Shown here: one piece after another, positions 15,521 to 32,499 of the stretch
Numbering within the stretch: position 1 is the stretch's first letter
Layout of the letters: each line of letters starts with the position of its first letter
Assembly: GCA_043718025.1 (NCBI GenBank)
Contig: JAYSWN010000001.1
Coordinates: 1 to 64,000 of the forward strand
Length of the DNA: 64,000 nucleotides
Reading direction: 5' to 3'
Origin: Pseudomonadota bacterium
GTDB taxonomy: Bacteria; Bdellovibrionota; FAC87; UBA2466
The notes under the pieces: generated by a model
Told to the model about the DNA's origin: nothing
What the model saw: the letters and a program-made list of their open reading frames with translations, nothing else
Database searches by the model: none
Translations under genes and position numbers: made by a program

Positions 15521-16138
15521 ATGGAATCGATTAAACTTTATTACGCCCCAAAAACCCGTTCGAGCCGTCCCCGCTGGCTGCTCGAGGAAATGGGTGTGCC
15601 CTACGACTTGATTCGCATCAATTTGGGCGAGAAGCAGCATAAGTCGGCCCATTACCTGAAAGTGCATCCGCTGGGCTTGGTTCCCGCCATCGAAGTGGCG
15701 GGGGCAACCCTTTTCGAGTCCACCGCGATCGTGGGTTATTTAGCGGACAAATTTTTGGACAAAAAGTTGGCCCCGGCCCTAGCGTCTAAGGATCGGGCCT
15801 TGTATTGGCAGTGGATGATGTACGGCGCGGTCACGCTTGAGGTCCCGGTGATGACTTACTTCATGCACACCGTGAAACTACCCGAGGCCGCGCGTAACGC
15901 CGGGCTTGCCGAAGAGGCCATTAAAACCTTCAAAGCTAATGCCGCGGTGGTTAACGATGCCTTAACCGGGAAACCCTTTTTGGTTGGAGATAGTTTTACT
16001 GCCGCCGACGTCGTGGTGGGGTCGACTCTAATCTTTGCACGAGCCTTAAAGATGCCGATGAGCGACTACCCTTCGCTGCCAACCTACGTGGGACGATTAA
16101 TGGAGCGTCCACCCTACCAACGTTCCATTGCCGACTAA
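15521..16138 (+). CDS. Glutathione S-transferase family protein
   Basis: LYYAPKTRS, HPLGLVP, LFESTAI..YLA, FLVGDSFTAADV. Confidence 0.93.
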   Translation: MESIKLYYAPKTRSSRPRWLLEEMGVPYDLIRINLGEKQHKSAHYLKVHPLGLVPAIEVAGATLFESTAIVGYLADKFLDKKLAPALASKDRALYWQWMMYGAVTLEVPVMTYFMHTVKLPEAARNAGLAEEAIKTFKANAAVVNDALTGKPFLVGDSFTAADVVVGSTLIFARALKMPMSDYPSLPTYVGRLMERPPYQRSIAD

Positions 16139-16373: not shown

Positions 16374-16817
16374 TTGGAAACGGGCTTCATCACAGTATTT
16401 TGGTACTTTGTAATCGCGGCCGCGATTGTGCCTCTCATGCTAGGCGCGGGTTGGCTATTGCGTCCCAAATCCCGGTACATTGGCAAAGCGGGAGCCGCTT
16501 ATGAGTGTGGTGAAGACCCCGTTGGCAGTCCGTGGGTAAAATTCAACATTCGTTTTTACGTCATTGCGATAGTTTTTATTATTTTCGACGTTGAGATGGT
16601 GGCCATCTTCCCGGTCGCGACGCTCTTTAAAGACGCGGCGCTCAAAGGCACAGCCGGTCTTATTTTTGCCGAAATTTTTCTGTTCGTCGGCCTTTTGGTT
16701 GCCGGCCTTATTTTCTGCTGGGTGCGTGGCGACCTAGATTGGGTGAAGGGCGTCTCCGGCCCCCGCCTGCGAAGCCCAAATAAAAATCGAAAGAGCGAAG
16801 TTAAGGGGAACGCATGA
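16374..16817 (+). CDS. nuoA: NADH-quinone oxidoreductase subunit A (set 1)
   Basis: YECG, RFYVIAIVFIIFDVE, GDLDW; TTG start after GGAAGGG. Confidence 0.95.
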   Translation: METGFITVFWYFVIAAAIVPLMLGAGWLLRPKSRYIGKAGAAYECGEDPVGSPWVKFNIRFYVIAIVFIIFDVEMVAIFPVATLFKDAALKGTAGLIFAEIFLFVGLLVAGLIFCWVRGDLDWVKGVSGPRLRSPNKNRKSEVKGNA

Positions 16818-17956
16818 TCGAGTCAGCTGCCTTTGCCCACACGCTGCAGGGCTGGGTTGGAATGGGTCCGCTCTGGATTTATGCCGCCCTTTCCGCCTTT
16901 CTTATTCTGTTTTTGCTCGCCCTTCCTTTTGGTGGCTTGGCCACTTACGTTGAGCGAAAGATCGCCGCCGATATTCAAGATCGCGTTGGCCCTAACCGCG
17001 TTGGCCCATTGGGCATTCTTCAGTTTGCGGCCGATGCCGTTAAAATGCTCGCGAAGGAAGACTTTACCCCGACCGGCGCTGACCGTTTCCTATTTAATAT
17101 TGCTCCGGTTTTTGTGGTGGTGGGCGCCTGCGCCGCCTTTGCTGCCTTGCCGTTTGGAAAACATCTGTTGGGCGCCGATTTAAATATCGGCGTTTTGTAT
17201 GTTCTGGCGGTCACCACTTTAGTGGCGCCAGGTTTGTTGCTGGGATCGTGGGCTTCACAAAACAAGTGGTCTTTGCTCGGCGGCCTTCGTGCGGCAGCCC
17301 AAATCGTTAGCTACGAAATTCCGGTTTCGCTTTCCATTCTTCCCGCGGTCATTATTTCGGGAACCCTGCAGATGGGCTCAATTGTTGAGCAGCAGGGTTG
17401 GAATACCGCGGTGGAACACGCGGCGGTGAATTATCATTTTTGGAACATAGTGCACAATCCGTTTACCTTTTGTGCCTTCTTCCTGCTCTTCGTTGGTGGC
17501 TTGGCGGAGACCAACCGCATTCCATTCGACTTACCTGAAGCCGAATCTGAACTGGTTTCGGGTTTCAACACCGAGTTTTCGGGAATGCGCTTTGGACTTT
17601 ACGCACTGGGCGAGTTTGTTGATGTGTTCGTGATGTCGGCGATGGTTACCGCCTTGTACTTAGGTGGCTGGCAGCTTCCCTTTTTTAATATCGATCAATG
17701 GGTGGTGCCCTTGCCCGTAGGGGTACTGGCGCTCGTTCACTTTACGGTGTTCATGGCCAAGACCCTGGTGATGGTCTTCGTTGTCATGTGGCTGCGCTGG
17801 ACGTTGCCGCGTTTGCGCGTGGATCAGCTGATGAGTCTTTGCTGGAAGGGCATGGTTCCGTTGGCGCTGATTAATGTTACCGGCACTGCTTTGTGGATGT
17901 GGGTCTTTAAAGGGCAGTCGATGGTGCAGTTAATCATGAAAGCTTTTGGCGGATAA
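16814..17956 (+). CDS. nuoH: NADH-quinone oxidoreductase subunit H (set 1)
   Basis: ERK..QDRVGPNRVGP, AQIVSYE, AETNRIPFDLPEAESELVSG, RWTLPRLRVDQL. Confidence 0.97.
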   Translation: MIESAAFAHTLQGWVGMGPLWIYAALSAFLILFLLALPFGGLATYVERKIAADIQDRVGPNRVGPLGILQFAADAVKMLAKEDFTPTGADRFLFNIAPVFVVVGACAAFAALPFGKHLLGADLNIGVLYVLAVTTLVAPGLLLGSWASQNKWSLLGGLRAAAQIVSYEIPVSLSILPAVIISGTLQMGSIVEQQGWNTAVEHAAVNYHFWNIVHNPFTFCAFFLLFVGGLAETNRIPFDLPEAESELVSGFNTEFSGMRFGLYALGEFVDVFVMSAMVTALYLGGWQLPFFNIDQWVVPLPVGVLALVHFTVFMAKTLVMVFVVMWLRWTLPRLRVDQLMSLCWKGMVPLALINVTGTALWMWVFKGQSMVQLIMKAFGG

Positions 17957-17961
17957 CACAG

Positions 17962-18477
17962 ATGACTACCGGAATGAAATTGGTGCTGTTTGCGGCTGAG
18001 ATTTTTACGCTAGCCGCGGCCCTTGTCGCCACCTTCCACCCCAATGTGCTTTACGGCGCCATAGCGCTTTTGGGCACTTTTCTTGGCGTGGCCGCAATGT
18101 ATCTCTTTGCCGGCGCCGATTTTTTGGCCGGTGCACAAGTGATTGTTTACGTCGGTGGCGTCACCATTTTAATTCTCTTCGCGATCATGCTCACGCAATG
18201 GCTATACCAAATGAAACTGCGTGATATTGGCACTAAGTTACTTGTCCCCGTTCTCATTGGGGCGGCCCTTTTCGCTTATTTGGTTAAGGCACTTTTAGAT
18301 ATCAACCCGCAGTTCGCCGCAGAAAATATTGAGAAATCACAAAAATTTTTGCACGCCCCCAAGACTCCGCTCATTGGTGAGGCTTTACTCAATGCCTATC
18401 TGCTCCCTTTTGAAGCCATCACCATTTTGCTTTTGGGTGCTTTGGTTGGTGCGGTTTGGATAGCGAGGCCAAGGTAA
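17962..18477 (+). CDS. nuoJ: NADH-quinone oxidoreductase subunit J (set 1)
   Basis: ADFLAGAQVIVYVGG, YLLPFE..LL..LVGA. Confidence 0.93.
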   Translation: MTTGMKLVLFAAEIFTLAAALVATFHPNVLYGAIALLGTFLGVAAMYLFAGADFLAGAQVIVYVGGVTILILFAIMLTQWLYQMKLRDIGTKLLVPVLIGAALFAYLVKALLDINPQFAAENIEKSQKFLHAPKTPLIGEALLNAYLLPFEAITILLLGALVGAVWIARPR

Positions 18478-18482
18478 CCATC

Positions 18483-18824
18483 ATGAATTTGCAAGTACTC
18501 CACTCTTTTTTAGATAAGGCCTGCGGAGTGCAGGGCTTTTTGGTCGTGAGCGCGGCGCTCTTTTGTTTGGGCATCGTGGGCGTGCTTTCGCGCAAGAACA
18601 CCATCGGAATTCTGCTCGGCATCGAGCTTATTCTCAATGCCGCGGGGCTTAATTTTGTAGCTTTTAGTCGCTATCGCACGGCGAACATCGATGGCCAGGT
18701 GGCCAATCTATTTATCATTATCATTGCCGCGGCGGAAGCTGCGGTGGCGCTGGCGATCATTCTTAGATTTTATCGCTTGAAACAGACTATTGATGCCGAT
18801 GAGGCCAACCTTCTGAGGAATTAG
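18483..18824 (+). CDS. nuoK: NADH-quinone oxidoreductase subunit K (set 1)
   Basis: RKN..IELILNAA, GQV, AAAEAAVALA; start moved to ATG 18483. Confidence 0.95.
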   Translation: MNLQVLHSFLDKACGVQGFLVVSAALFCLGIVGVLSRKNTIGILLGIELILNAAGLNFVAFSRYRTANIDGQVANLFIIIIAAAEAAVALAIILRFYRLKQTIDADEANLLRN

Positions 18825-18827
18825 CGA

Positions 18828-20888
18828 ATGGCGCAGAGTTGTCTTTGGATAGTGGCGTTCCCTTTCTCGGCCTTTTTAATTCAGGCTTGGATTGGTAAAA
18901 AGCTGCCCCGTCACGGGGATTTTATCTCGGTAATCGCTATTGCCGGCTCGTTGGCGTTGGCAACGCCGATCTTTATTCAGATGCTGAGCACGGGAAATTT
19001 GTACGACACCCTTCAGCTTAAATGGATCGCGCTTCCCGGGGTGCCCTCCGCCGGGCTAAAAGGGGCTCAAGGGTATGAACTCGTGATTGGCGTGCTGGTG
19101 AACAACCTAACCGCCATCATGTTGTTCATGGTTACGCTGTGTTCGACCCTGATTCACCTCTTCTCCGTGGGCTACATGCACGGTGAAGATCGGTATCATC
19201 TCTTTTTCGCTTACATCTCTTTGTTCTCGGCTGCGATGTTGGGCTTGGTTATTTCCGATAACTTGCTCACCTTCTTTATCTGTTGGGAGCTGATGGGCCT
19301 ATGCTCGTACCTGTTAATTGGTTTCTATTACAAAAAGCCGTCGGCCATTAACGCCAGCATAAAAGCCTTTATGACCACCCGTGTGGGTGACACCTGTTTT
19401 TTTATGGGCATTTGCGGGGTTTATTACCTGTTCGGAACCACCAATTTCATGGAGATTTACGGGGCGGTAAAAAATAACGTGGGCCACGATGTCCTGATTT
19501 TGGGGCTGCCGGCATACACGTTTATTGGTTTGATGATCATGATGGGCACGATTGGAAAGTCGGCCCAGTTTCCTCTGCACATCTGGTTGCCCGATGCGAT
19601 GGAAGGCCCCACTCCGGTGAGCGCCCTTATTCATGCGGCTACCATGGTGGCGGCCGGCGTTTTTCTTTTGATTCGCACCTATCCGTTGCTCGAAGCCTCG
19701 CACGGGGTGTTGACGATTATCGCCTACGTTGGCGTGATTACGGCCTTTCTGGCGTCGCTTATTGCCATCGTGCAGACCGACATCAAGAAGGTGCTCGCTT
19801 ACTCAACCATCAGTCAGCTTGGTTTCATGGTGCTGGGCGTGGGGGTCGGGGCGTTCGGCGCTGCCTTTATGCATTTGGTGACTCACGCTTGTTTCAAGGC
19901 CTGTTTATTCTTGTGTTCGGGCAGCGTGATTCACGCCGTACACACTCAGGACATGCGCGAAATGGGCGGGTTGCGTACTAAGATGCCTTGGACATTTGCG
20001 TGCATGCTCATTGCCACCTTGGCGATTAGTGGCCTTCCGTTCTTCTCAGGTTTTGTGAGTAAGGATCGAGTCTTGGCCGGGGCGCTGGCTTTTGGCATGG
20101 AACACGCTCATCACATGCTGATCCCTATTCTTGGTTTTGTAACCGCCGGCATCACCGCGTTTTACATGTTTCGCCTGATCTACATGACCTTCTTCGGCGC
20201 AGCGCGCGATGAGCATAAGCATCACCATGCGCACGAACAGCCGTTGATCATGGTTTTTCCCTTGGTGGTTTTGGCCGCTTGTTCTTTGTCTCTCTGGTTT
20301 TCGGGCCCCACTGGTTTGGATTTAGTGGACAGTGTGCTGCCGGTGAAATGGTTTGAACACAGTGTGGAGGCTTCGCAGGTGGCGATGGGCATTGGCGCTC
20401 ACCATGGAAATGAAGAGATTCATCACACCGCCCACAACTTGGCGCTGATTTTATCGTTGTTATTGGCCGGTGGCGGCATTCTGCTTTCTTCGCTGGTTTA
20501 CCTACGGCGGATTATCAGCCCCGATACGTTAAAGCGGCTGTTCGGGCCGATGCACCATATTTTGTGGCATAAATATTTTTTTGATGAGCTGTACGTCGGT
20601 TTCTTCATCAAGAAGGTGCTGTTGTCATGGAATCGCATGCTGGCGGCGTTTGATAACCGTGTGGTGGATGCCATCTTCGTGGATGGCTGGAGCAAAGTGG
20701 TGATGGTGCTGCGCACCGTTGTCGGTAAGTTCGACGAGATTTTTGTTGATCGGCTATTTGTTGATGGCGCCGGAGATATGGTCACCGTGAGTGGCTGGGT
20801 AGTGCGTCGTTTTCAAACTGGCCGGGTACAGCAGTATTTGATTTTTTCGTTGTTGGCGCTCGGAGTTGTGTTCTGGGCGTTGAAATAG
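18828..20888 (+). CDS. nuoL: NADH-quinone oxidoreductase subunit L (set 1), extended amphipathic helix
   Basis: WELMGLCSY, GKSAQFPLHIWLPDAMEGPTPVSALIHAATMV, DIKKVLAYST, THACFKA, GFVSKD, QTG. Confidence 0.97.
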   Translation: MAQSCLWIVAFPFSAFLIQAWIGKKLPRHGDFISVIAIAGSLALATPIFIQMLSTGNLYDTLQLKWIALPGVPSAGLKGAQGYELVIGVLVNNLTAIMLFMVTLCSTLIHLFSVGYMHGEDRYHLFFAYISLFSAAMLGLVISDNLLTFFICWELMGLCSYLLIGFYYKKPSAINASIKAFMTTRVGDTCFFMGICGVYYLFGTTNFMEIYGAVKNNVGHDVLILGLPAYTFIGLMIMMGTIGKSAQFPLHIWLPDAMEGPTPVSALIHAATMVAAGVFLLIRTYPLLEASHGVLTIIAYVGVITAFLASLIAIVQTDIKKVLAYSTISQLGFMVLGVGVGAFGAAFMHLVTHACFKACLFLCSGSVIHAVHTQDMREMGGLRTKMPWTFACMLIATLAISGLPFFSGFVSKDRVLAGALAFGMEHAHHMLIPILGFVTAGITAFYMFRLIYMTFFGAARDEHKHHHAHEQPLIMVFPLVVLAACSLSLWFSGPTGLDLVDSVLPVKWFEHSVEASQVAMGIGAHHGNEEIHHTAHNLALILSLLLAGGGILLSSLVYLRRIISPDTLKRLFGPMHHILWHKYFFDELYVGFFIKKVLLSWNRMLAAFDNRVVDAIFVDGWSKVVMVLRTVVGKFDEIFVDRLFVDGAGDMVTVSGWVVRRFQTGRVQQYLIFSLLALGVVFWALK

Positions 20889-20906
20889 AGAGGCGTTGAA
20901 GGATCT

Positions 20907-22412
20907 ATGCTTAGTCTAATGACGTTTGTCCCGCTGATCGGGATGGTAGTGGTCTTATGTCTCCCCAAAGATAAGCCGCAGTGGATTCGGCTGGCCAGTG
21001 TGGTCACCACGTTTATCCCCTTAGCGCTCGCCGCCAAGCTGTTTATGGAATTCGACCGGACCAATCCGGGCATTCAATTCACCGAACGCATGATGTGGAT
21101 TCCGATGTTCAACATCGAATACTACATGGGGGTCGACGGATTGAGCGTCGGCATGGTGATTTTAACCGCGCTGCTGTCTTTTCTTTGTATTTTTGCTTCG
21201 TGGACCATCGACTATGGCGTCAAAGGCTACTTTGCGATGTTTCTATTTTTAGAAGCGGGAATGATGGGCGTGTTCTGCGCTTTAGATTTTTTCCTGTTCT
21301 TCATGTTCTGGGAAGTGATGCTGCTTCCCATGTACTTTCTCATCGGTATTTGGGGCGGCAAAAACAAAGTTTACGCCGCGATCAAATTCTTTCTCTACAC
21401 CCTATTTGGTTCGGTGCTGATGCTGCTCGTTATGGTGGGCATGTATTACTACTCTGACGCTCACACCTTCGACCTTATTAAATTGGCGGCTACGCATCCT
21501 TTCGCGGGTAAAACTATCTCGTTGTTCGGTAGCCAATTTGCGATGGACAAGATTTTCTGGGTGGGCCTTTTTATTGGTTTTGCCATCAAGGTTCCGGTGT
21601 GGCCGTTTCACACCTGGCTGCCTTGGGCGCACGTGGAAGCACCAACTGCCGTATCGGTGATTTTGGCCGGCGTACTTCTGAAAATGGGTACCTACGGAAT
21701 TCTCCGCATGAACTTTCCCATTCTTCCCGAAGCCACCATGTGGGCAGCAAACGCCATGGCATTGCTCGGCGTAATCAATATTCTTTACGGGGCGTTCTGC
21801 GCGATGGCGCAAACCGATCTCAAAAAGCTGGTGGCTTACTCTTCGGTTTCTCACATGGGTTACGTGATGCTGGGCATGTCCACCTTTACGGTGGCGGGCG
21901 TGAACGGTGCCGTTCTCCAAATGGTGAACCATGGCCTTTCGACCGCCATGATGTTCCTTTTGGTCGGCATCATTTATGAACGCGCGCATCACCGTTGGAT
22001 TGTGAAGCCGGACGGCAGCCGTGGTTTTGGCGGCATTGCCGGCGTAGTGCCGGTGTTTACCGGAGTTTCCGCCATTGCCTTGTTTGCTTCGTTGGGCCTT
22101 CCCGGCCTCAATGGTTTTATCAGTGAAGCCATGGTTTTCATGGGAGCGTTTTCGGTGCCGCGTTTACAAACATTAACGGTGATTGGCTCTCTAGGAATCG
22201 TGCTGGGCGCCGCTTACTTGTTGTGGATGTTTATGCGGGTTTATTTGGGGCCGTTGAACGAAGAGTACAAAGACTTGCCTGACATGAATTGGCGCGAGCG
22301 GCTCACGTTGGCGCCATTGATCGTGTTGGTAATTCTTTTGGGCGTTTATCCCATGCCGGTGCTCGACCTGATGTCGGCAACGGTGGCTAAACTTCTGACG
22401 ATTTTCACCTAA
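20907..22412 (+). CDS. nuoM: NADH-quinone oxidoreductase subunit M (set 1)
   Basis: GVDGLS, FWEVML.PM, IKVP..PFHTWLP.AHVEAP, LLKMGTYG, AYSSVSHMG, GFISE. Confidence 0.97.
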   Translation: MLSLMTFVPLIGMVVVLCLPKDKPQWIRLASVVTTFIPLALAAKLFMEFDRTNPGIQFTERMMWIPMFNIEYYMGVDGLSVGMVILTALLSFLCIFASWTIDYGVKGYFAMFLFLEAGMMGVFCALDFFLFFMFWEVMLLPMYFLIGIWGGKNKVYAAIKFFLYTLFGSVLMLLVMVGMYYYSDAHTFDLIKLAATHPFAGKTISLFGSQFAMDKIFWVGLFIGFAIKVPVWPFHTWLPWAHVEAPTAVSVILAGVLLKMGTYGILRMNFPILPEATMWAANAMALLGVINILYGAFCAMAQTDLKKLVAYSSVSHMGYVMLGMSTFTVAGVNGAVLQMVNHGLSTAMMFLLVGIIYERAHHRWIVKPDGSRGFGGIAGVVPVFTGVSAIALFASLGLPGLNGFISEAMVFMGAFSVPRLQTLTVIGSLGIVLGAAYLLWMFMRVYLGPLNEEYKDLPDMNWRERLTLAPLIVLVILLGVYPMPVLDLMSATVAKLLTIFT

Positions 22413-22421
22413 AGGTTGGCC

Positions 22422-23927
22422 GTGATTCAAAATGCCGTTGAAAGTTTAAAGTGGTTTGCTCCAGAAGCTGTTTTAGTCACGTTTTTGGTGCTCATCTTTA
22501 TAACTGATGCGTTTTTGCCCAAGGCGCGATCGACTTCGCTCTCCTTTATGTTGGGTTGTTTGGGTTTGGTGGCTTCGATTGCCGCAACCCTCAAATTAAT
22601 GCCCTTGGCCCCGTCGATGTACTTCTCGGGAGTGGTGGCGCACGATGGCCTTTCTAGCTTTTTCCGCATCCTCGCGTTTTCCGCCGGAATTTTAGGTCTC
22701 TACGCCGCCTACGGCTCGAAAGAGCTCGAAGTAAAATATCGTAACGAGTACGCCATTCTAATTTTGTGTACGGTGTTTGGAATGAGTTTGATGGCGATTT
22801 CCACCAACCTCATCATGCTCTACATCGGTATTGAAACGGTGAGCATTATTTCGTTTGCGTTGGCCGGCCTAAATCGCGAAAGCCTGCGATCGAATGAGGC
22901 GTCGTTAAAGTATTTGATCTACGGCGCGTTATCGTCTGGCCTGATGATCTACGGCTTTTCGTTGTTATACGGCATCACCGGCTCGTTGCAATACGACGAG
23001 ATTCGCTCAAGCCTAATGGCAATGAATATGGCGGAGCCGCCGGCGGTTCTTCAGATTGCGATCTTACTGGTGTTTGGCGGTTTGGCTTTCAAGATTTCGG
23101 CATTTCCCATGCATTTCTGGACTCCAGACGTATACGAAGGGGCGCCCACTCCCGTGGTCACCTTCTTTTCGGTTGGCCCTAAAGCTGCCGGCATGGCGGC
23201 ATTGATTCGTATTTTTTATGGGGTGTTCGCCATCAAGGGCGCCGACATGACGTGGACCGTGATGCCCGGCAGTAACCTGCTTTTGGGCCTCTCAATCGTT
23301 TCTGCCCTTACCATGTTCGTAGGAAATGTTTCGGCACTGGCGCAGGTTAGCGTGAAGCGAATGCTGGCCTATTCAAGTATCGCGCACGTGGGGTACCTAT
23401 TGATGGGCCTGGTGGCGATGAATGAAAAAGGGCTCGTTGCCGTGCTTTTTTATCTCGTAGTTTATTATCTGATGAACGTGGGCGCCTTCATCGTGACTGG
23501 TCTGGTCATTGAAGCGCGCGGTTCAGACGACGTAGAATCCTTTCGTGGTATCGGTTGGACCAATCCCTACCTTGGGGTTTGTATGGCGGTGTTTCTGTTT
23601 TCTTTAACCGGCATTCCGGTGTTCGGTGGTTTCGTCGGCAAATTTTTACTTTTCGGCTCGGTGATTGATGCCCCCAATTTCTTGTGGTTGGCAATTTGGG
23701 GCGTGCTCAACAGCGTGGTGTCTTTGTACTATTACGCCCGCATCGTGAAGGCGATGTGGCTGGATAAGCCGGTGACGGCATCGGCTCAGACGCTGCCCCG
23801 CATCCATTTAAGTTCATTTCATTTTGTGGGCCTCTTTTTGTTGGCCGTGCCCACAGTTCTGCTTGGGCTGTTCTTCAGCCCGGTGGTGCGGATGGCGAAG
23901 GCTTCAGTGGCGGCGTTACTCTCATAA
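22422..23927 (+). CDS. nuoN: NADH-quinone oxidoreductase subunit N (set 1)
   Basis: EASLKY, FKIS.FPMHFWTPDVYEGAP, KRMLAYSSIAH, GFVGK, YYY.R. GTG 22422 preferred (AAGGT RBS) over TTG 22416. Confidence 0.96.
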   Translation: MIQNAVESLKWFAPEAVLVTFLVLIFITDAFLPKARSTSLSFMLGCLGLVASIAATLKLMPLAPSMYFSGVVAHDGLSSFFRILAFSAGILGLYAAYGSKELEVKYRNEYAILILCTVFGMSLMAISTNLIMLYIGIETVSIISFALAGLNRESLRSNEASLKYLIYGALSSGLMIYGFSLLYGITGSLQYDEIRSSLMAMNMAEPPAVLQIAILLVFGGLAFKISAFPMHFWTPDVYEGAPTPVVTFFSVGPKAAGMAALIRIFYGVFAIKGADMTWTVMPGSNLLLGLSIVSALTMFVGNVSALAQVSVKRMLAYSSIAHVGYLLMGLVAMNEKGLVAVLFYLVVYYLMNVGAFIVTGLVIEARGSDDVESFRGIGWTNPYLGVCMAVFLFSLTGIPVFGGFVGKFLLFGSVIDAPNFLWLAIWGVLNSVVSLYYYARIVKAMWLDKPVTASAQTLPRIHLSSFHFVGLFLLAVPTVLLGLFFSPVVRMAKASVAALLS

Positions 23928-23945: not shown

Positions 23946-24311
23946 TTGGTAACCTATCTTCCGATAGCAATTTTATTTCTCTTCGGCGCGGGCATGGGAG
24001 TGGTCATTATTGCGCTGTCGAGTTTTCTCGGGCCGCGTAACTACAACTCGACCAATCTCAGTACCTACGAATGCGGAGTGACCCCTGAAGGCAGCGCCCG
24101 CATTCCTTTTAAGAGCCGTTTTTACCTTATCGCCGTTTTATTTTTGTTGTTTGACGTAGAAGCGGTCTTCTTTTTTCCGTGGGCGTTGGTTTATCGTGAA
24201 TCGGTTCGTCAAGACGCCGGGCTGCTTATTGCGATGTTGGTTTACATGGCGTTTTTAATCTTGGGGTTGGTCTATGTGTTTCGTAAGAACGTGTTGGAGA
24301 CTGACCAGTGA
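23946..24311 (+). CDS. nuoA: NADH-quinone oxidoreductase subunit A (set 2)
   Basis: YECG, RFYLIAVLFLLFDVE..FFFPWA; TTG start after GGGAG. Confidence 0.95.
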   Translation: MVTYLPIAILFLFGAGMGVVIIALSSFLGPRNYNSTNLSTYECGVTPEGSARIPFKSRFYLIAVLFLLFDVEAVFFFPWALVYRESVRQDAGLLIAMLVYMAFLILGLVYVFRKNVLETDQ

Positions 24312-25378
24312 CGGCAATCATGGAGCTGTCGCTCAATTCATTTAAGATTTTTCTTCTCTTTTTCTCCATCGTTAACGTGGTGCCCGTGATGCTTTGGGTT
24401 GAACGGCGAATGGCGGGTCTGATGCAAGATCGCCCCGGCCCAAACCGCGTCGGACCTTTTGGCCTGTTTCAAGCCGTGGCCGACGTCGTAAAGTTTTTCT
24501 GGAAGATGGACCCGATTCCGCAGAATGCAAATCGCGTCTTATACGTGCTTGCCCCGTTGCTCGCGCTTATTCCGGCCACCCTGGTGATTGCTACGCTGCC
24601 GTTTGCCGACTTCGTTGTTTTGTGGGATCGCGAATTCCATCTCCAGATAACTGACCTTAACGTTGGCATACTTTACATGATGGCGATTGGGTCGTTAGGC
24701 GCCTACGGCATATTGTTTGGCGGATGGGCTTCGAATAATAAGTTTTCGCTATTGGGTGCACTGCGGGCGGCCTCGCAATTAATTAGCTACGAAATTCCGT
24801 TGGGACTGGCCGCCACCGGCGCCGTTCTATTTTATGGCACGTACTCCTTGCGCAGTATGGTGTTAATTCAAGACGGCACCATTTTTGGGGTGCTGCCGAA
24901 GTGGGGCATCTTTTTTCAGCCGCTCGGATTTATGATTTTTTTTATCGCCTCGTTAGCGGAAACTAACCGCATTCCATTCGACCTGCCTGAATCCGAAGGG
25001 GAGTTGGTGGCGGGTTTTCACACTGAGTACGGAAGCATGAAGTTCGCCATGTTCATGATGGCGGAATATATGAATCTGGCCACCATGTCGGCTCTCATGA
25101 CCACGATGTATTTCGGCGGTTGGCACTTGCCTTGGATTACTGACGCGAGCCTGCTCAGCTGGTTGGGCGGTAGTCGAAATTTAATGGCCGTGGTGCAGCT
25201 CGGGGTTTTCTTCGCTAAGGTTTATTCCTTTCTGCTTGTGTACGTTTGGATTCGCTGGACGTTGCCACGCTTTAGATTTGACCAACTGATGCGCATGGCC
25301 TGGCGAAATCTCACGCCGTTTGCCCTGTTGAACTTGGTAGTTACCGCCGTGCTTCTTTATTTCTGGGAGCAGCGATGA
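24308..25378 (+). CDS. nuoH: NADH-quinone oxidoreductase subunit H (set 2)
   Basis: ERR..QDRPGPNRVGP, SQLISYE, AETNRIPFDLPESEGELVAG, RWTLPRFRFDQL. Confidence 0.97.
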   Translation: MTAIMELSLNSFKIFLLFFSIVNVVPVMLWVERRMAGLMQDRPGPNRVGPFGLFQAVADVVKFFWKMDPIPQNANRVLYVLAPLLALIPATLVIATLPFADFVVLWDREFHLQITDLNVGILYMMAIGSLGAYGILFGGWASNNKFSLLGALRAASQLISYEIPLGLAATGAVLFYGTYSLRSMVLIQDGTIFGVLPKWGIFFQPLGFMIFFIASLAETNRIPFDLPESEGELVAGFHTEYGSMKFAMFMMAEYMNLATMSALMTTMYFGGWHLPWITDASLLSWLGGSRNLMAVVQLGVFFAKVYSFLLVYVWIRWTLPRFRFDQLMRMAWRNLTPFALLNLVVTAVLLYFWEQR

Positions 25379-25905
25379 AAGAAATTCTATTCACCGCGTT
25401 TGGATTGTTGTCGCTGGCGAGCGCTCTGATGGTTGTTTTGGCATCGAGTCCCATCTTCAGCGCCTTAGGCCTACTGTTTAGTCTCTTTGGTCTGTCGGCC
25501 CTGTATCTGATCTGGGGATCGGCATTTTTATCGGTGATTCAAATTTTGATTTACGCCGGCGCGATCGTGGTGCTGTTTGTTTTCGTCGTGATGTTGCTCG
25601 ACCTCTCCAACACCATTGATACGGGCAAAGGGGCGGGATGGTTTGCCACGTTACTGGCCACTTCTACCGGCTGGCTATTTTCTCTGTTTTTGCTACGGGC
25701 ATTGAATCGCGGAGTGTTTGCCTCGGCTCCCGACGGTAAGATGATGGGAAGCCTACGGGTGGTCTCTCAAGTGCTGTTCAGAGAGTATCTGTGGCCGTTT
25801 GAAATTCTTTCGGTGTTTCTTTTGGCCGTGATTATCGCCGCCTACTGTTTGGCCCGGCCAGAGACGCTCGATGACGACAATGGCGCCGGTGGAGGGACGC
25901 GATGA
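25375..25905 (+). CDS. nuoJ: NADH-quinone oxidoreductase subunit J (set 2)
   Basis: QILIYAGAIVVLFVFVVMLL, YLWPFE. Confidence 0.94.
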   Translation: MKEILFTAFGLLSLASALMVVLASSPIFSALGLLFSLFGLSALYLIWGSAFLSVIQILIYAGAIVVLFVFVVMLLDLSNTIDTGKGAGWFATLLATSTGWLFSLFLLRALNRGVFASAPDGKMMGSLRVVSQVLFREYLWPFEILSVFLLAVIIAAYCLARPETLDDDNGAGGGTR

Positions 25906-26222
25906 TTGCTACTTACTCAGCCTCTATGTTGTCGTGGAGCCACTACGTGGCCATTGCACTCTTTGGCATTGGATTAACTGGGTTTTTGTTGCGTCGTAAC
26001 GCGATCGTAGTTTTGATGTGCGTTGAACTAATGCTGAACGCCGTGAATCTCATTTTTTTGGAAGTGTCGATGCGCACGCAATCGCACGAGGGCCTTCTCT
26101 TCGTGGTGTTTGTGGTGACGGTCGCGGCGGCAGAAGCGGCCATTGGCCTTGCCATTCTGTTGAACCTGTACCGCAAACAGGGAACTTTAGAGCTCAACCT
26201 TTTCCGGATGTTGCAGGGGTAA
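25902..26222 (+). CDS. nuoK: NADH-quinone oxidoreductase subunit K (set 2)
   Basis: RRN..MCVELMLNAVNL, VAAAEAAIGLA. Confidence 0.95.
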   Translation: MIATYSASMLSWSHYVAIALFGIGLTGFLLRRNAIVVLMCVELMLNAVNLIFLEVSMRTQSHEGLLFVVFVVTVAAAEAAIGLAILLNLYRKQGTLELNLFRMLQG

Positions 26223-26226
26223 TGCG

Positions 26227-28128
26227 ATGAAAACGGCATTTTACATCTTGTTACTCGCCCCCTGGATCGGTTGCGTGATCAACGGCTTCTTATGGAAAGT
26301 CTTGAAGCAGACGGCTTCAGTACGTCGCTCGGGGGTGATTGCCACGTTTGCGGCGGGCACTTCTTTTGTCGCGGCGCTGGTTTTGTTTTTGTCCTTAGCC
26401 CAAGGGCAAGAGGCAGTTGAGTTTGCTTGGCCGTGGATAAACATTGGTGACCTCGCTCTTGACTTAGGGTTTAAGTTCGACCGCCTCACGGCCGTGATGG
26501 CGCTGTTTGTGACCGGTATTGGCACGCTCATACACCTTTATTCGATTGGCTACATGGACCACGACAAATCGCCGTCGCGGTACTTTGCGTATCTCAATTT
26601 GTTTCTAGCTAACATGCTGGTGCTCATTACCGCTACTTCGCTTCCCGTGCTTTTTATCGGTTGGGAAGGGGTGGGCTTATGCTCTTACCTGCTGATCGGT
26701 TTTTGGTTCGAAGATCCAGAAAAGGCCAAGGCCGGAATGAAGGCCTTCATCGTTAATCGCATTGGCGACGCCGGCTTCTTACTGGGTACTTTTCTACTGC
26801 TTTCAGTTTTCCACACGGTGAATTTTGCGCAGATGGCAAAGGTCATGTCCCAGCCCGACATCCTTACTCTAGTCGACATTCCTACTTTGACGGTGGCAGC
26901 AATTCTTTTGTTTATTGGGGCCATGGGTAAGTCGGCCCAACTGCCGTTATTCGTGTGGTTGCCGGATGCCATGGCTGGCCCCACGCCGGTAAGCGCGCTC
27001 ATTCATGCCGCCACCATGGTGACGGCAGGCATTTACCTTGTTTTACGTATGAATTTTTTGTTCCAGGTCACGCCACAGGCTAGCGCTTTTATTGCGGTAG
27101 TGGGCATGGCCACGGCTCTCTTCTCGGCTTTGGTGGCGACTTCGCAAAACGACATCAAAAAGGTATTGGCCTACTCGACGGTGAGTCAGCTCGGTCTGAT
27201 CTTTGTGGCGCTCGGTGCGGGGGCCTACGATGCGGGCCTATTTCACGTTATCACCCACGCCTTTTTTAAAGCCCTTCTTTTCTTGGGCGCGGGCAGTGTG
27301 ATTCACGCTCTGTCGGGCGAACAAGACATTACTCGCATGGGTGGTCTACGCAAAAAGTTGCCCACTACGTTTTGGACTTTTACCGTGGGCTGGGCCGCCA
27401 TTTGTGGGTTGCCTCCCTTCTCGGGTTTTTTCAGTAAAGACCTGATTCTGTTTAGTCTGGTTTCGGAGGGGCCTCGAGGCTGGTTTCTCTGGGGCTGCGC
27501 TTCGCTAACTTCATTGCTCACCGCTTTTTATATGACCCGCCTTTATCTTTTAGTGTTCTTCAGTGAAGAGCGGGATCATCACCATGCCCACGAAAGTCCC
27601 CTCGTGATGAAAATACCGCTGATCGTTTTGGCCGTCGGCGCGATGGTGGCTGGGTTCATTGAGCTGCCCCATCTTTTTCATATCACCTCCCGGCTGTCGC
27701 TTTTTCTTGAGGGGGTCGTACCTGTTCCCCATTTTGTTGAGGGCCCTTTGTCGGAGGGCGGCGCGATGGCCGTTGCCACCGTCGGCGCCGTCTTAGCGAT
27801 AGGATTGGCCTGGCTGATGTACGGCAAACGCCCCTTTTCACCAAGCCGAAGCCCCGTCGTTATGGTGCTGAGAGAAAAGTTTTGGGTCGATGAGTTTTAC
27901 CATCTGGTTTTTGTTACCCCTTTTGACATGGTTTCTGGGTTTCTTGCGCGCGTCGTGGACCCCCGTTTGGTAGATGGTTTTTTCGTGGGCTCGGCAAAAC
28001 TGGCTCGCTTTGGAGGAACTGTTTTGGGTTTTCTTCAGTGGGGAGCCGTGCAGTTTTACTTGTGGGTGATGGCAGCGGGTGCCGTTGTTCTGTTTTGGGT
28101 ATTTCTTAGAGGTTCGATCTTCCAATGA
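26227..28128 (+). CDS. nuoL: NADH-quinone oxidoreductase subunit L (set 2), standard-length helix
   Basis: GWEGVGLCSY, NRIGD, GKSAQLPL..WLPDAMAGPTPVSALIHAATMV, THAFFKA, GFFSKD. Confidence 0.97.
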   Translation: MKTAFYILLLAPWIGCVINGFLWKVLKQTASVRRSGVIATFAAGTSFVAALVLFLSLAQGQEAVEFAWPWINIGDLALDLGFKFDRLTAVMALFVTGIGTLIHLYSIGYMDHDKSPSRYFAYLNLFLANMLVLITATSLPVLFIGWEGVGLCSYLLIGFWFEDPEKAKAGMKAFIVNRIGDAGFLLGTFLLLSVFHTVNFAQMAKVMSQPDILTLVDIPTLTVAAILLFIGAMGKSAQLPLFVWLPDAMAGPTPVSALIHAATMVTAGIYLVLRMNFLFQVTPQASAFIAVVGMATALFSALVATSQNDIKKVLAYSTVSQLGLIFVALGAGAYDAGLFHVITHAFFKALLFLGAGSVIHALSGEQDITRMGGLRKKLPTTFWTFTVGWAAICGLPPFSGFFSKDLILFSLVSEGPRGWFLWGCASLTSLLTAFYMTRLYLLVFFSEERDHHHAHESPLVMKIPLIVLAVGAMVAGFIELPHLFHITSRLSLFLEGVVPVPHFVEGPLSEGGAMAVATVGAVLAIGLAWLMYGKRPFSPSRSPVVMVLREKFWVDEFYHLVFVTPFDMVSGFLARVVDPRLVDGFFVGSAKLARFGGTVLGFLQWGAVQFYLWVMAAGAVVLFWVFLRGSIFQ

Positions 28129-29690
28129 TTTCTAACCTTCTAGTTTGGCACATCCTGTTACCGGTAGTTGGGGTGGCGGTGATGTTTCCGCTAACCGAGA
28201 GGCTAGCTCGCCCCTTGGCGTTCGCGTTTTCATTGGGCGGAGTCGTGCTTTCAATTCTGCTCTGGGCGCAGTTTTCGGCGGTTGATTCGTTTCAGATGCA
28301 GCACCTGTTTTCATTGCCCTGGCTCTCTTCGTTTCCGGCGAAGTTTTCACTCGGCGTAGACGGCATCAGCTTGCCGCTAGTGGTGCTTACGAAATTCATG
28401 ATGCCAATTGCTTTGCTGGCCAGTTGGAAAGAAGATCGGCATCCGCGTGCCTTAATGAGCGCCTACCTTTTATTAGATTCGGCGATGACCGGAGCGTTCT
28501 TGGCCACCGACGTCTTTTTGTTCTATGTGTTCTGGGAAGCCATGCTGGTCCCTATGCTGTTGCTCATTGGGGTGTGGGGAAGCAAAGATCGTATTTATGC
28601 GGCGCTTAAATTTTTTCTATTTACCTTTGCCGGCAGCATTTTTCTGCTCGCCGCGTTTCTTTATTTGATGGTGGCCCACCGCCAGCAGGTCGGTTTTTTT
28701 ACCACCGATCTGGTTGCGTTGACTAAGGTTACGCTTTCTACGGCGCCCGTTTGGCTGGGCCTTTCCGTTCAAGATCTGATCTTTTGGGGCTTGACCCTAG
28801 CCTTCCTTATAAAAATCCCACTTTTTCCTTTTCACACGTGGCTTCCGGATGCGCACGTTCAGGCACCTACCGGTGGCAGCATTCTTCTAGCGGCCGTACT
28901 TTTAAAACTTGGTGCCTATGGCCTTTTACGTTTCTCTATTCCGATCGCGACGATGAGCTTTTACAAGTTCGCCCCGCTTCTGAGCGTGCTCTCGCTAGTT
29001 GGTATCGTGTACGGGGCGTGGGTTGCCTTTCAGCAAAACGACATGAAAAAGTTAGTGGCCTATTCATCGGTGAGCCACCTTGCGTTCGTTGTCTTGGGAA
29101 TTGCTTCGCTAAATTTAGAGGGCCTTACCGGTGGTATGCTGCAGATGGTGAACCACGGGGTAAGCACCGGTGCGCTCTTTTTCTTGGTGGGTGCGTTGTA
29201 TGAACGGCGCCACACTCGCGATTTTGCGGAGTACGGTGGACTTGCGGCCGTCGTGCCGTGGTTTTCGTTCTTTCTCGTTTTTACGGTGTGTTCGAGCATG
29301 GGGGTTCCGGGGCTGAATGGTTTCGTGGGCGAGTTTTTGGTCCTGCTCGGCACCTATCAGCAGAATCCGTTTTTTGCGGGTGTCGCGGTGACGGGAATTG
29401 TTTTTGGTGCCATCTACTTGCTAGTTTTCGTGCGCAAGATTTTATTTGGGCCGGTGGACAACGCCGAGAATAAAGTACTTTTAGATTTGCGGCCGCGTGA
29501 GTGGGCGGGGATTTTGCCCTTGGCGGTTTTTATGCTGTTGTTGGGTTTAGCGCCTAACCTAATGTTGAATAAGATTCGGCCATCGCTGGAAAAGTACTGG
29601 GGCTCGCTAGGCCGGCCCCCTAACGCGCAATCCATTCCTACAATGTCGCTAACCCAATGGGCGCCCGAAGCAAGAGGGCCCAAGCGATGA
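28125..29690 (+). CDS. nuoM: NADH-quinone oxidoreductase subunit M (set 2)
   Basis: GVDGIS, FWEAML.PM, IKIP.FPFHTWLPDAHVQAPT, LLKLGAYG, GFVGE. Confidence 0.97.
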   Translation: MISNLLVWHILLPVVGVAVMFPLTERLARPLAFAFSLGGVVLSILLWAQFSAVDSFQMQHLFSLPWLSSFPAKFSLGVDGISLPLVVLTKFMMPIALLASWKEDRHPRALMSAYLLLDSAMTGAFLATDVFLFYVFWEAMLVPMLLLIGVWGSKDRIYAALKFFLFTFAGSIFLLAAFLYLMVAHRQQVGFFTTDLVALTKVTLSTAPVWLGLSVQDLIFWGLTLAFLIKIPLFPFHTWLPDAHVQAPTGGSILLAAVLLKLGAYGLLRFSIPIATMSFYKFAPLLSVLSLVGIVYGAWVAFQQNDMKKLVAYSSVSHLAFVVLGIASLNLEGLTGGMLQMVNHGVSTGALFFLVGALYERRHTRDFAEYGGLAAVVPWFSFFLVFTVCSSMGVPGLNGFVGEFLVLLGTYQQNPFFAGVAVTGIVFGAIYLLVFVRKILFGPVDNAENKVLLDLRPREWAGILPLAVFMLLLGLAPNLMLNKIRPSLEKYWGSLGRPPNAQSIPTMSLTQWAPEARGPKR

Positions 29691-31168
29691 GTGTCGTTAG
29701 TCAGTTTCTATTTCCATTGGGGCCGATTTTGGCTTTGGTAGGCGGCGGTTGCACTCTCATCGGCGCTGAATGCGTAGGCCCCAATTTTTTAAGCACCCGT
29801 GCCAAGGGAATGGTGGCCTGGTTAGCGGTAGCTATAGCCGCAGGGTTGTGCTTTTTTCAGCTTGGTCACATACCGACCGAAGAAGGTTTTCACTTGGCGG
29901 GCGGTCCCGCCTGGCTTGTTCAGTTCACTTATTTTTATCAATTCAGCCGCACGGTAGTTCTCCTTCAGATGATGATCGCAGTTTTTGCCATGTTTGTACT
30001 GCACGCGGTGGTGGCTGAGTTTCGCCGCAATGATATCGTGGGAGAGGTACTAGCGCTCCTATTGTGGTCGGGCGCCGGAATGATGCTACTCGTATCGGCC
30101 GATCACTTTCTGGTCGTGTTTTTAGCCCTGGAACTTCTTTCGTTGCCGCTCTACGCCATGGTGGGATTGAAGCGTTGGGACGCCAAGAGTCTGGAAGCCG
30201 CGCTCAAATACTTCCTGTTTGGTTCCGTGGCCACGGCCTTTTTATTACTGGGAATAGCTTTTATTTTTGCGGAAACGGGAACACTTTCTTTACCCCTCAT
30301 TCGTGACTTTGTGGCGGCCCTGGCTCAAGGCGGCAATCTGGCCGATCATGTTTTGCTGTTGTCGGGCATGTTGTTGCTGATCGTGGCCCTGGGTTTTAAG
30401 GCGGGCATGTTTCCGTTCCACATGTGGCTCCCCGACGTTTATGAGGGGGCACCTGCCGGCGTAACGGCTTGGATGGGAAGCGGAGTGAAGCTCGCCGCCA
30501 TTGGCCTTACCTATCGCCTTTTCGCCGAAACGTTTGCCACTCTACCGCAGGGGTGGGTGGAGCCATTTCGCTATCTGGTGGCCGCCACAATTCTGGTGGG
30601 AAATGCGGCCGCTCTGGTGCAAGACGATTTGAAACGAACTTTTGCTTACTCTTCGATTGGTCACGCGGGCTTCTTAATGTTGGGCGTGATGGTGAGTCCG
30701 AGCGATTTAGGAGCATCCCCAAATTTTCTGCTCTATTACTTGCTAACTTACGGCCTGATGTTTATTGGCATTTTTAGTTTTTTAACGCACCTAGAGCGGC
30801 AGGGTCTTAGCACCGAGTTCCACGAATTGTCGGGACTTGGTTTCACGTCGCCGGGTTTAGGGCTGTGCCTCTCAATTTTTGCCCTTTCAGCGGCGGGGCT
30901 TCCTCCCTTTGCCGGCTTCTTTGCCAAATATCAGATCTTTCTTTTCGCCTTTCAAAAGGGCGAAGGGGCATTGGCGGTAATCGCCTTGATCGGTAGCTTG
31001 ATTGGGCTTGCCTACTACCTTCGGGTTTTGGTGTTCCTCTATATGAAAGAGCCAAAGAGCACGGTACGTCTCTCGGCTAAAAGCGATCCCACCGGATTCG
31101 GAATTCTCGTAGCGTTGGCCTTGGCTACGGTCGCGTTGAGCTTTTTACCCGGAATATTCGGCAAATAA
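29687..31168 (+). CDS. nuoN: NADH-quinone oxidoreductase subunit N (set 2)
   Basis: LELLSL, EAALKYF, FK...FPFHMWLPDVYEGAP, AYSSIGH, GFFAK, YYLR. Start at the ATGA overlap with nuoM. Confidence 0.96.
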   Translation: MSVVSQFLFPLGPILALVGGGCTLIGAECVGPNFLSTRAKGMVAWLAVAIAAGLCFFQLGHIPTEEGFHLAGGPAWLVQFTYFYQFSRTVVLLQMMIAVFAMFVLHAVVAEFRRNDIVGEVLALLLWSGAGMMLLVSADHFLVVFLALELLSLPLYAMVGLKRWDAKSLEAALKYFLFGSVATAFLLLGIAFIFAETGTLSLPLIRDFVAALAQGGNLADHVLLLSGMLLLIVALGFKAGMFPFHMWLPDVYEGAPAGVTAWMGSGVKLAAIGLTYRLFAETFATLPQGWVEPFRYLVAATILVGNAAALVQDDLKRTFAYSSIGHAGFLMLGVMVSPSDLGASPNFLLYYLLTYGLMFIGIFSFLTHLERQGLSTEFHELSGLGFTSPGLGLCLSIFALSAAGLPPFAGFFAKYQIFLFAFQKGEGALAVIALIGSLIGLAYYLRVLVFLYMKEPKSTVRLSAKSDPTGFGILVALALATVALSFLPGIFGK

Positions 31169-31275: not shown

Positions 31276-32499
31276 ATGAGATTATTGGGAATATTTTTGG
31301 TATCGGTTTTCTTCGCTTCAGCCGCTCAGGCGGACCGGCCGCAGGTTCCGCATTTGGAAATGGAATTAGATTCGTCGACTTACCAGTCTCTTCTTGCCTC
31401 GCGCAATGGCGGCGCTCGTAGTGACAAGGTGCAGGCCTCGTTGGACATGGGAAAACGATTTCTAGCCTGGCTAGCGTTCATCAACGACAAACGCCCCCAG
31501 GGTAAAAAAATCTCACTCACTTCACCGGCGACGACCGTGGCCTATCCAATCGATAAACCGAACAAGAGCAATCCAGATTTAATCAACGCCAGGTACGAAG
31601 AGCTTAAGAGTGCGGTCCCCGCGTGGATGCAGGAGATCGCTTTTGGAAACGGAGAGTTCATTTCTGATCTTCCTGAATCCGATGAAGTCTTTATCAAGTA
31701 CGGTTTTAGTTTGGACCGCAACTATCAATCCGCGGCCCGTTGGACTTTACAAGAGCCCATGCTTTGGGCCTATTCCGGTCGCAAGAGTGGCGACGTACGT
31801 GGGTACTACCAACTGAATAAGATTTCTGACCTCGAGGCTAAATTTCAAGGCTGGTCGAGTTTGAGTGTTGGCGAAAAGAGCGCAATCTTGACGGCGATGA
31901 ACCAGCTCTGCTGGATTTCGCAAACCGAGTCTCGCTGTAAGTCTACGCTTCTCGCCGCTAAAGAAGACGGCGAAAAACTATCGACCTTACATGCCGAGTG
32001 GATGCCGGCGGGCAAGAAGAAATGGGATTCATACTTTGAAATGAGTGGCCTTCGCAGTGACGTGAAGTGGTCGGCTGCCAATTTGATGCAGCTGCCATTT
32101 AAGACTCCGCAATCGGCGGCGATTAAGAGTTTTTTGGTCGATAATATCGAAGACGAATGGAAGTGGGCGGGCTGGAGCTTGAAGCTAGATTTTGACTCCA
32201 GTGCGGCGGCCTACGTTCGCTTTGAACCGGGAGCCACCCCAAACGTAAATGGCCTGGGCGGAAACCGCATCACCATGGACGCCAATGCTCCGCTCACCGA
32301 ATACGGTGTGCAGTGGACAATTCGGCACGAATTTGGCCACGTGCTTGGTTTTCCTGATTGCTACGTCGAGTTCTACGATAGTGATGAAAAGGCGATGATC
32401 AACTATCAGCTAGATACCACTAACTTGATGTGTAGCCGCCGCGGAAAGCTGCAGGAAAAACATTTGGTTGCTTTAAAGGCTGCGTACTTCGAGAACTGA
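31276..32499 (+). CDS. Secreted metzincin-type zinc metallopeptidase
   Basis: Signal peptide (AQA/D), HEFGHVLGFPD zinc motif, Met-turn-like NLMC. Confidence 0.75.
   Translation: MRLLGIFLVSVFFASAAQADRPQVPHLEMELDSSTYQSLLASRNGGARSDKVQASLDMGKRFLAWLAFINDKRPQGKKISLTSPATTVAYPIDKPNKSNPDLINARYEELKSAVPAWMQEIAFGNGEFISDLPESDEVFIKYGFSLDRNYQSAARWTLQEPMLWAYSGRKSGDVRGYYQLNKISDLEAKFQGWSSLSVGEKSAILTAMNQLCWISQTESRCKSTLLAAKEDGEKLSTLHAEWMPAGKKKWDSYFEMSGLRSDVKWSAANLMQLPFKTPQSAAIKSFLVDNIEDEWKWAGWSLKLDFDSSAAAYVRFEPGATPNVNGLGGNRITMDANAPLTEYGVQWTIRHEFGHVLGFPDCYVEFYDSDEKAMINYQLDTTNLMCSRRGKLQEKHLVALKAAYFEN

Follow-up and report, generated by a model that had tools for sequence, protein, structure and literature searches.

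How many pumping subunits does a complex I membrane arm assemble when its NuoL carries a lengthened transverse helix and its operon a single nuoM? The question is raised by the 64,000-nucleotide window that we analyzed (positions 1–64,000 of contig JAYSWN010000001.1, assembly GCA_043718025.1), which encodes two complete membrane-arm gene sets in tandem on the + strand, set 1 at 16374–23927 and set 2 at 23946–31168. Set 1 comprises nuoA1, nuoH1, nuoJ1, and nuoK1 (16374–18824, +), nuoL1 with its long strap (18828–20888, +; 686 aa; TIGR01974 601 bits, cut-off 407.5), nuoM1 (20907–22412, +; TIGR01972 589 bits), and nuoN1 (ORF at 22416–23927, +, the probable start being a GTG six bases in). Set 2 (nuoA2, H2, J2, K2, L2, M2, and N2, all on the + strand) has a standard strap, encoded in nuoL2 (26227–28128). 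Proteins of the two sets share 31–44% identity, with 40% between NuoM1 and NuoM2. The genome, which is 92.4% complete, holds seven antiporter-type genes, namely the six of the window and one on contig C162, and a search of it for an orphan nuoM found none. The gene on C162 is NuoL-like and encodes 540 aa, with an 823-aa gene after it (G000 contig C162:10427–14551); judging by eye, we take the former to be DabB-like and the pair to be a DabB/DabA inorganic-carbon transporter.

The strap helix of NuoL1 extends from D586 to G665 (20583–20822, +) and is followed, after the QTG motif, by the terminal transmembrane helix TM16 (residues 667–685; 20826–20882, +). Counted inclusively from DExY to QTG, it has 78 residues (D586–Q663), whereas the one-module standard strap of NuoL2 (27889–28038, +), which served as an internal control, has 50 (D555–Q604). 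Two 27-residue modules lie in tandem within the NuoL1 strap with an 81-nt period: module A (residues 608–634; 20649–20729, +), with D609-x4-D614, and module B (residues 635–661; 20730–20810, +), a second copy of the docking module with D636-x4-D641. These counts, the positions of the repeat, and the presence of one nuoM between nuoL1 and nuoN1 all agreed with an earlier, sequence-only reading of the window. Its value of 27 residues for the extra length was correct for the module, whereas the total excess over NuoL2 is 28, made up of the 27-residue module and a one-residue insertion in the original module; both NuoL1 modules are thereby one residue above the usual 26.

Identity between modules A and B amounts to 12 residues out of 27 and 41 bases out of 81. 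Only 8 of their 27 third codon positions match, which means that the duplication must be old. The best self-match within the NuoL1 helix scored 41, against a mean of 12.2 (sd 5.0) in shuffled sequences; none of 500 shuffles reached 41, which rules out a chance repeat. A recent duplication or an assembly artefact was likewise ruled out by the third positions together with matches to the NuoL1 tail, which were found in 110 of 301 genomes of the window's phylum (109 of the 300 others). An AlphaFold monomer of NuoL1, built on 70 of 88 homologues, gave a single unbroken helix at residues 582–661 with pLDDT 68–83, a result that reports helix propensity and not helix location. In 70 NuoL1 homologues, D586, D609, D614, D636, and G665 are invariant and D641 almost so. 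Strap spacing is standard at both ends of the NuoL1 strap, and the tail beyond the last module carries a G..lr..QTG motif that is alike in long and short straps. These features support the interpretation that the extra length of NuoL1 represents a duplicated NuoM-docking module, as large as the extension in operons that truly have two nuoM genes.

We also considered whether arm 1 might be broken, and this was ruled out because its key residues are intact. The charged residues E154, K244, H269, and K412 are present in NuoL1, as are E136, K228, K259, and E407 in NuoM1, the latter four being invariant in 47 long-strap NuoM sequences; NuoN1 has equivalents of the pumping charged residues. We read these antiporter residues as the TM5 Glu, TM7 Lys, TM8 Lys/His, and TM12 Lys/Glu, a helix assignment that is partly assumed.

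Strap length was measured, from the first Asp to the Gly of QTG, in 184 L-M operons that included the window's two. Excluded before measuring were one set with a frameshift, four loci of Mrp- or hydrogenase-like type, and any duplicates whose tails were identical; two further loci yielded no L-M pair. Of the straps, 89 measured 47–54, 92 measured 76–81, and 3 measured 141; no length of 55–75 was seen in this sample, part of which had been fished with the long NuoL tail. All eight two-nuoM operons had a long strap, and 87 of the 95 long-strap operons had a single nuoM (3 of the 87 end before nuoN). In the sample that was not fished by tail, consisting of 40 regions hand-picked from 109 Chloroflexota NuoM matches and 40 from 80 matches in the Bacteroidota phylum, 76 operons comprised 49 short ones, 17 long ones with a single nuoM, 3 at 141, and 7 with two nuoM. 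Two FastTree phylogenies, one built on NuoM and one on the NuoL core (strap excluded), each show at least seven switches between long and short straps. The long strap is also present in cultured organisms (two Solitalea isolates), and among named organisms the NuoL1 tail comes closest to that of Bdellovibrionota-type MAGs (78% identity).

These results indicate that a long strap with a single nuoM is a common bacterial layout and is not special to this genome. The idea that a long strap is a signature of two-nuoM ('2M') enzymes had to be given up: 87 of 95 long straps contradict it, and so does the literature, as Yu et al. 2022 describe a NuoL insertion outside their two-nuoM cluster (PMC9040806). 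Set 1, with its NuoL1, is an ordinary member of a widespread long-strap, single-nuoM class, a trait already in print.

Some operons of this sample deserve separate mention. Four Chloroflexota single-nuoM operons with straps of 81 (L094, L101, L112, and L113) were lengthened separately, their nearest tree relatives being short. Four short straps of 50 (L158, L162, L163, and L168) are nested among long-strap operons of the Bacteroidota phylum; they are clean one-module differences and useful as natural controls. The three operons with a 141-residue strap (L143, L144, and L146, from G400, G412, and G404, respectively) carry a 65-residue insert between two intact modules and are followed by one nuoM. 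The insert has two hydrophobic stretches and is likely a transmembrane hairpin.

Which protein each module would face can be approached through the docking residues. In Paracoccus, D648 of Nqo12 coordinates H239 and Y315 of Nqo13/NuoM, a role described as structural (PMC9802314), and D609 of NuoL1 aligns with this NuoM-docking Asp. With module anchors chosen by a score favoring Asp, the D-x4-D pattern was found in module A of 79 and module B of all 87 single-nuoM long straps; the corresponding counts in the eight two-nuoM operons, whose NuoMs are unrelated paralogues and not sisters in the tree, were 8 and 0. The docking motif was retained by both modules across six phyla. In NuoM1, the TM7 motif WLPDAH has W240 (21624–21626, +) where Asp is usual; this position lies five residues past the strap-binding His (H235). 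NuoM2 and NuoN1 retain the Asp that NuoM1 lost. Where NuoM has lost this Asp (to Trp, Leu, or His), both modules carry Asp in place of the usual Asn (50 of 50 long operons); where NuoM retains its own, both modules have Asp at that place in 0 of 36 (1 untyped). NuoN retains its Asp in all 47 readable cases among the 50 operons with an Asp-less NuoM. Module B therefore tracks NuoM and not NuoN, because NuoN retains its Asp while module B changes with NuoM. The simplest reading of this residue pattern is that both modules would face the same protein, NuoM1.

The covariation represents two to three independent events, of which two pairs lie on well-supported branches (sign test, median p 1, not significant), and it could also have arisen if one module was duplicated anew. 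In eight short-strap cases NuoM lacks the Asp (two have Glu), and no matching module change was seen. Among the two-nuoM operons, the Asp is present in module B in all 4 with an Asp-less second NuoM, yet also in 2 of the 4 in which that NuoM retains it. NuoN also bears the docking-site His and Tyr. The covariation between modules and NuoM points weakly to a NuoM homodimer.

On balance, we lean slightly towards an L-M-M-N arm in which NuoM1 is used twice. The NuoL1 strap would then act as a ruler and admit NuoM1 twice: the first strap anchor would hold NuoL, module A would hold the NuoM1 next to NuoL, module B would hold a second NuoM1 next to NuoN, and the unchanged tail and TM16 would hold NuoN as usual. 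At 1.5 Å per residue, 27 residues span about 40 Å, roughly one subunit. Antiporter subunits chain via TM12–TM5 contacts, and the unit is extendable to four, according to a published account (PMC7419157). The stepwise strap lengths, the long strap in 8 of 8 two-nuoM operons, and the one continuous predicted helix all support this arrangement. The double use of NuoM1, one of two options offered by the sequence-only reading, remains the best account of the arm and is unproven. No complex I is known to us in which a single antiporter subunit is built in two times, and a search of mostly open-access literature, without Chadwick 2018, found neither a proposal of a NuoM homodimer nor a structure of a long-strap enzyme. 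In the available part of a complexome study, no Nuo subunit was detected (PMC6005880). As to the wider claim, that a large multi-phylum class of complex I consists of hidden four-pump enzymes which use the same NuoM twice through a 26–27-residue strap duplication, we regard the chances as even.

A possible but distinctly less probable explanation is a normal L-M-N arm pumping 4 H+, with one module on NuoM and the other bulging along the membrane surface. The bulging module might, just as tentatively, be mere slack, offer another register, or bind a lipid or some further partner. The occurrence of one nuoM with 87 of 95 long straps fits this explanation, as does a strap that is structural rather than mechanistic, the role given in PMC9802314. 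The 65-residue insert between modules in three operons (L143, L144, and L146), with its two hydrophobic stretches, implies that the chain can leave the strap path there. It is also in keeping with a bulge that we saw no interface or translation signal of a second NuoM. The NuoM faces show no clear convergence on those of NuoL or NuoN: in five pairs of long and short sister groups, TM5 identity between NuoM and NuoL was 24/24, 44/32, 36/48, 42/40, and 27/34% (long/short). Group means for long versus short were 37 versus 30% for NuoM–NuoL TM5 and 29 versus 27% for NuoM–NuoN TM12; these means lean towards convergence, but the five sister comparisons disagree. The ribosome site of nuoM was stronger than that of nuoN in 26 of 35 long Bdellovibrionota sets and in 10 of 15 short ones, as scored by a start picker that favors strong sites and with six operons skipped, the window's set 2 among them; long and short operons are not told apart by this measure. 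The nuoL1–nuoM1 spacer is 18 nt, and junctions of ≤3 nt occurred in 4 of 35 for set 1 and 13 of 15 for set 2. What weighs against a bulge is that a slack segment ought to degenerate and to come in various lengths, whereas both modules keep their motif across the six phyla, straps of 55–75 were not observed, and the AlphaFold monomer helix runs without a break.

We consider it unlikely that the register is shifted in a three-pump arm, such that NuoN receives module B while TM16 and the tail extend further, to NuoK/J/A/H. NuoN does have the homologous His and Tyr, and in E. coli the effects of mutating NuoN K158/H224 resemble those of the corresponding NuoM mutations (PMC3046159). Such a shift is opposed by the same G..lr..QTG tail in long and short straps, by the anchoring of module B at the standard distance from that tail motif, and by the change of module B with the NuoM Asp while NuoN retains its own.

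The other option raised earlier, that arm 1 borrows NuoM2 of the adjacent set (as L1-M2-M1-N1 or L1-M1-M2-N1), is very improbable: the sets are indeed adjacent on one strand in the window and in 21 of 40 relative loci, but they lie apart in G016, G006, and G032, NuoM2 is just 40% identical to NuoM1, and NuoM2 retains the TM7 Asp whereas both modules are of the type paired with the Asp-less NuoM1. In family f10, moreover, 8 of the 17 genomes examined (2–9 contigs, 93–100% complete) carry the same strap (78–79) with exactly three antiporter-type genes. As these eight near-closed genomes have L, M, and N only, any fourth pump there must be a repeat. Five long-strap genomes from outside Bdellovibrionota have 8–10 antiporter-type genes each and hence provide no test of borrowing.

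We then asked which soluble module would serve which arm. The soluble genes lie elsewhere in the genome, with BCDEFGI on contig C40 and only B, C, D, and I (no E, F, or G) on C230. In Planctomycetota and Elusimicrobiota, relatives of set 1 form ABCDHIJKLMN operons whose B, D, and I mostly have the C230 copies as best matches. In family f10, NuoF was found in none of the 10 genomes that lack an adjacent second set and in both of those that have it. Because of the C230 best matches and this NuoF pattern, set 1 likely pairs with the headless NuoBCDI of C230 as an 11-subunit enzyme, and set 2 with the NADH head NuoBCDEFGI of C40 as an NADH dehydrogenase. It is very likely that the two sets encode two different enzymes. 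By analogy with other 11-subunit enzymes, the donor of set 1 may be a low-potential carrier, e.g., ferredoxin or flavodoxin. Among 5 genomes searched, the PFOR-type domain PF01855 turned up in 2, this one included, and in neither of the two with the long arm only; the MqnA domain of the futalosine pathway was not found in any of the 5 genomes in which it was sought.

With NuoM1 used twice, the set-1 complex I, likely lacking an NADH-input module, would pump 5 H+ per 2 electrons against 4 for the neighboring arm, and it would take electrons from a donor more reducing than NADH beside a standard 4 H+ NADH enzyme. A respiratory 'gear shift', as suggested from the sequence at the outset, is plausible as two enzymes with different electron inputs, and only in that form; nothing observed here pointed to reverse electron transport.

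The set-1 arm can be compared with several known systems. Chadwick, Hemp, Fischer, and Orphan (2018, ISME J 12:2668) reportedly described 2M complex I as having two nuoM genes and a NuoL strap longer by one module. Its arm would hold four antiporter subunits, and pumping of more than 4 H+ per 2 electrons or reverse electron transport to ferredoxin has been proposed for it. The strap of 79 here resembles the 76–80 of the eight Chloroflexota two-nuoM operons and exceeds that of NuoL2 by 28. These operons have two nuoM of separate origin and a diverged second module, whereas set 1 has one gene and two alike modules. By definition, set 1 with its one nuoM is not a 2M complex, but it may work like one.

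In 'Ca. Manganitrophaceae', Complex_I_1 and Complex_I_2 are single-nuoM clusters with an insertion in the NuoL helix, as in NuoL1, theirs being of ~26 residues (Yu et al. 2022; PMC9040806). Yu et al. view such forms as already able to take extra pumping subunits or as in transition, towards or away, and the available part of their text contains no proposal of one NuoM used twice. In contrast to those clusters, the locus described here has a 27-residue module, a Bdellovibrionota-like host, soluble genes located elsewhere, and a standard arm directly behind. An 11-subunit ('headless') complex I-like enzyme is described for Desulfitobacterium in PMC11238625. NuoBCDI without EFG on C230 resembles it, as do long-strap relatives in ABCDHIJKLMN operons or NuoF-less genomes, whereas the genes here are split over two loci. 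Compared with standard complex I (E. coli 3RKO, Thermus 4HE8, Paracoccus 8QBY, and cyanobacterial NDH-1 6HUM), NuoL1 has the same NuoL fold (Foldseek TM-score 0.65–0.78), with the central charged residues intact. NdhF of 6HUM, the best solved relative, aligns to NuoL1 as two segments separated by a gap roughly one module long. A weak search (2 matches at E ≤ 10) found no solved chain with two modules.

Should the arm indeed hold two copies of NuoM, a ruler helix, and not the number of genes, would determine how many pumps complex I has, and the H+/e− ratio could change through gain or loss of one helical module, without a new gene. Gene counts would then miss most five-proton enzymes, and long single-nuoM operons (17 of 76 in the Chloroflexota and Bacteroidota sample, plus 3 at 141, versus 7 with two nuoM) would be the commonest high-gear enzymes. 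The window would encode a headless four-pump enzyme in one run with a standard three-pump arm. Long-strap enzymes would also provide a natural experiment on whether one proton is gained per antiporter subunit, and the near-closed relatives contain no other arm to confuse subunit counts. If the module only loops out, it is a structural quirk already noted in print. To the known trait, the window adds an internal short-strap control, relatives that argue against borrowing, and a covariation hinting weakly at a NuoM homodimer.

Several further observations were made in the window and in related genomes. A glutathione S-transferase gene (15521–16138, +) lies upstream of nuoA1 on the same strand, and a 407-aa ORF (31276–32499, +) lies directly 3′ of nuoN2; the ORF has no match in NCBIfam or Pfam and, by eye, an HExxH motif near its C-terminus. 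In a scan, promoter-like sites numbered 7 where 12.3 were expected, and terminator-like sites 46 where the expectation was 33.6; neither count offered a lead. A MAG titled Planctomycetota (L015) carries a Bdellovibrionota-type set, with AHJKLM order, 27-residue modules, and the NuoM Trp, which reflects either transfer or a binning error. Loci L061/L008 and L066 have frameshift-like breaks in nuoH, nuoN, nuoL2, and nuoM2, and in the nuoL1 of L066; these are likely assembly errors. In G036, L194 (9907–12411) holds a second, divergent cluster of NuoB, a fused CD, and an I-like gene. As this genome has a single membrane arm and lacks NuoF, two soluble modules stand against one arm there. Finally, a rhodanese-domain gene follows the headless nuoBCDI on contig C230 (12910–13533; L002 in G000), and the same arrangement was seen in G007 and G006.
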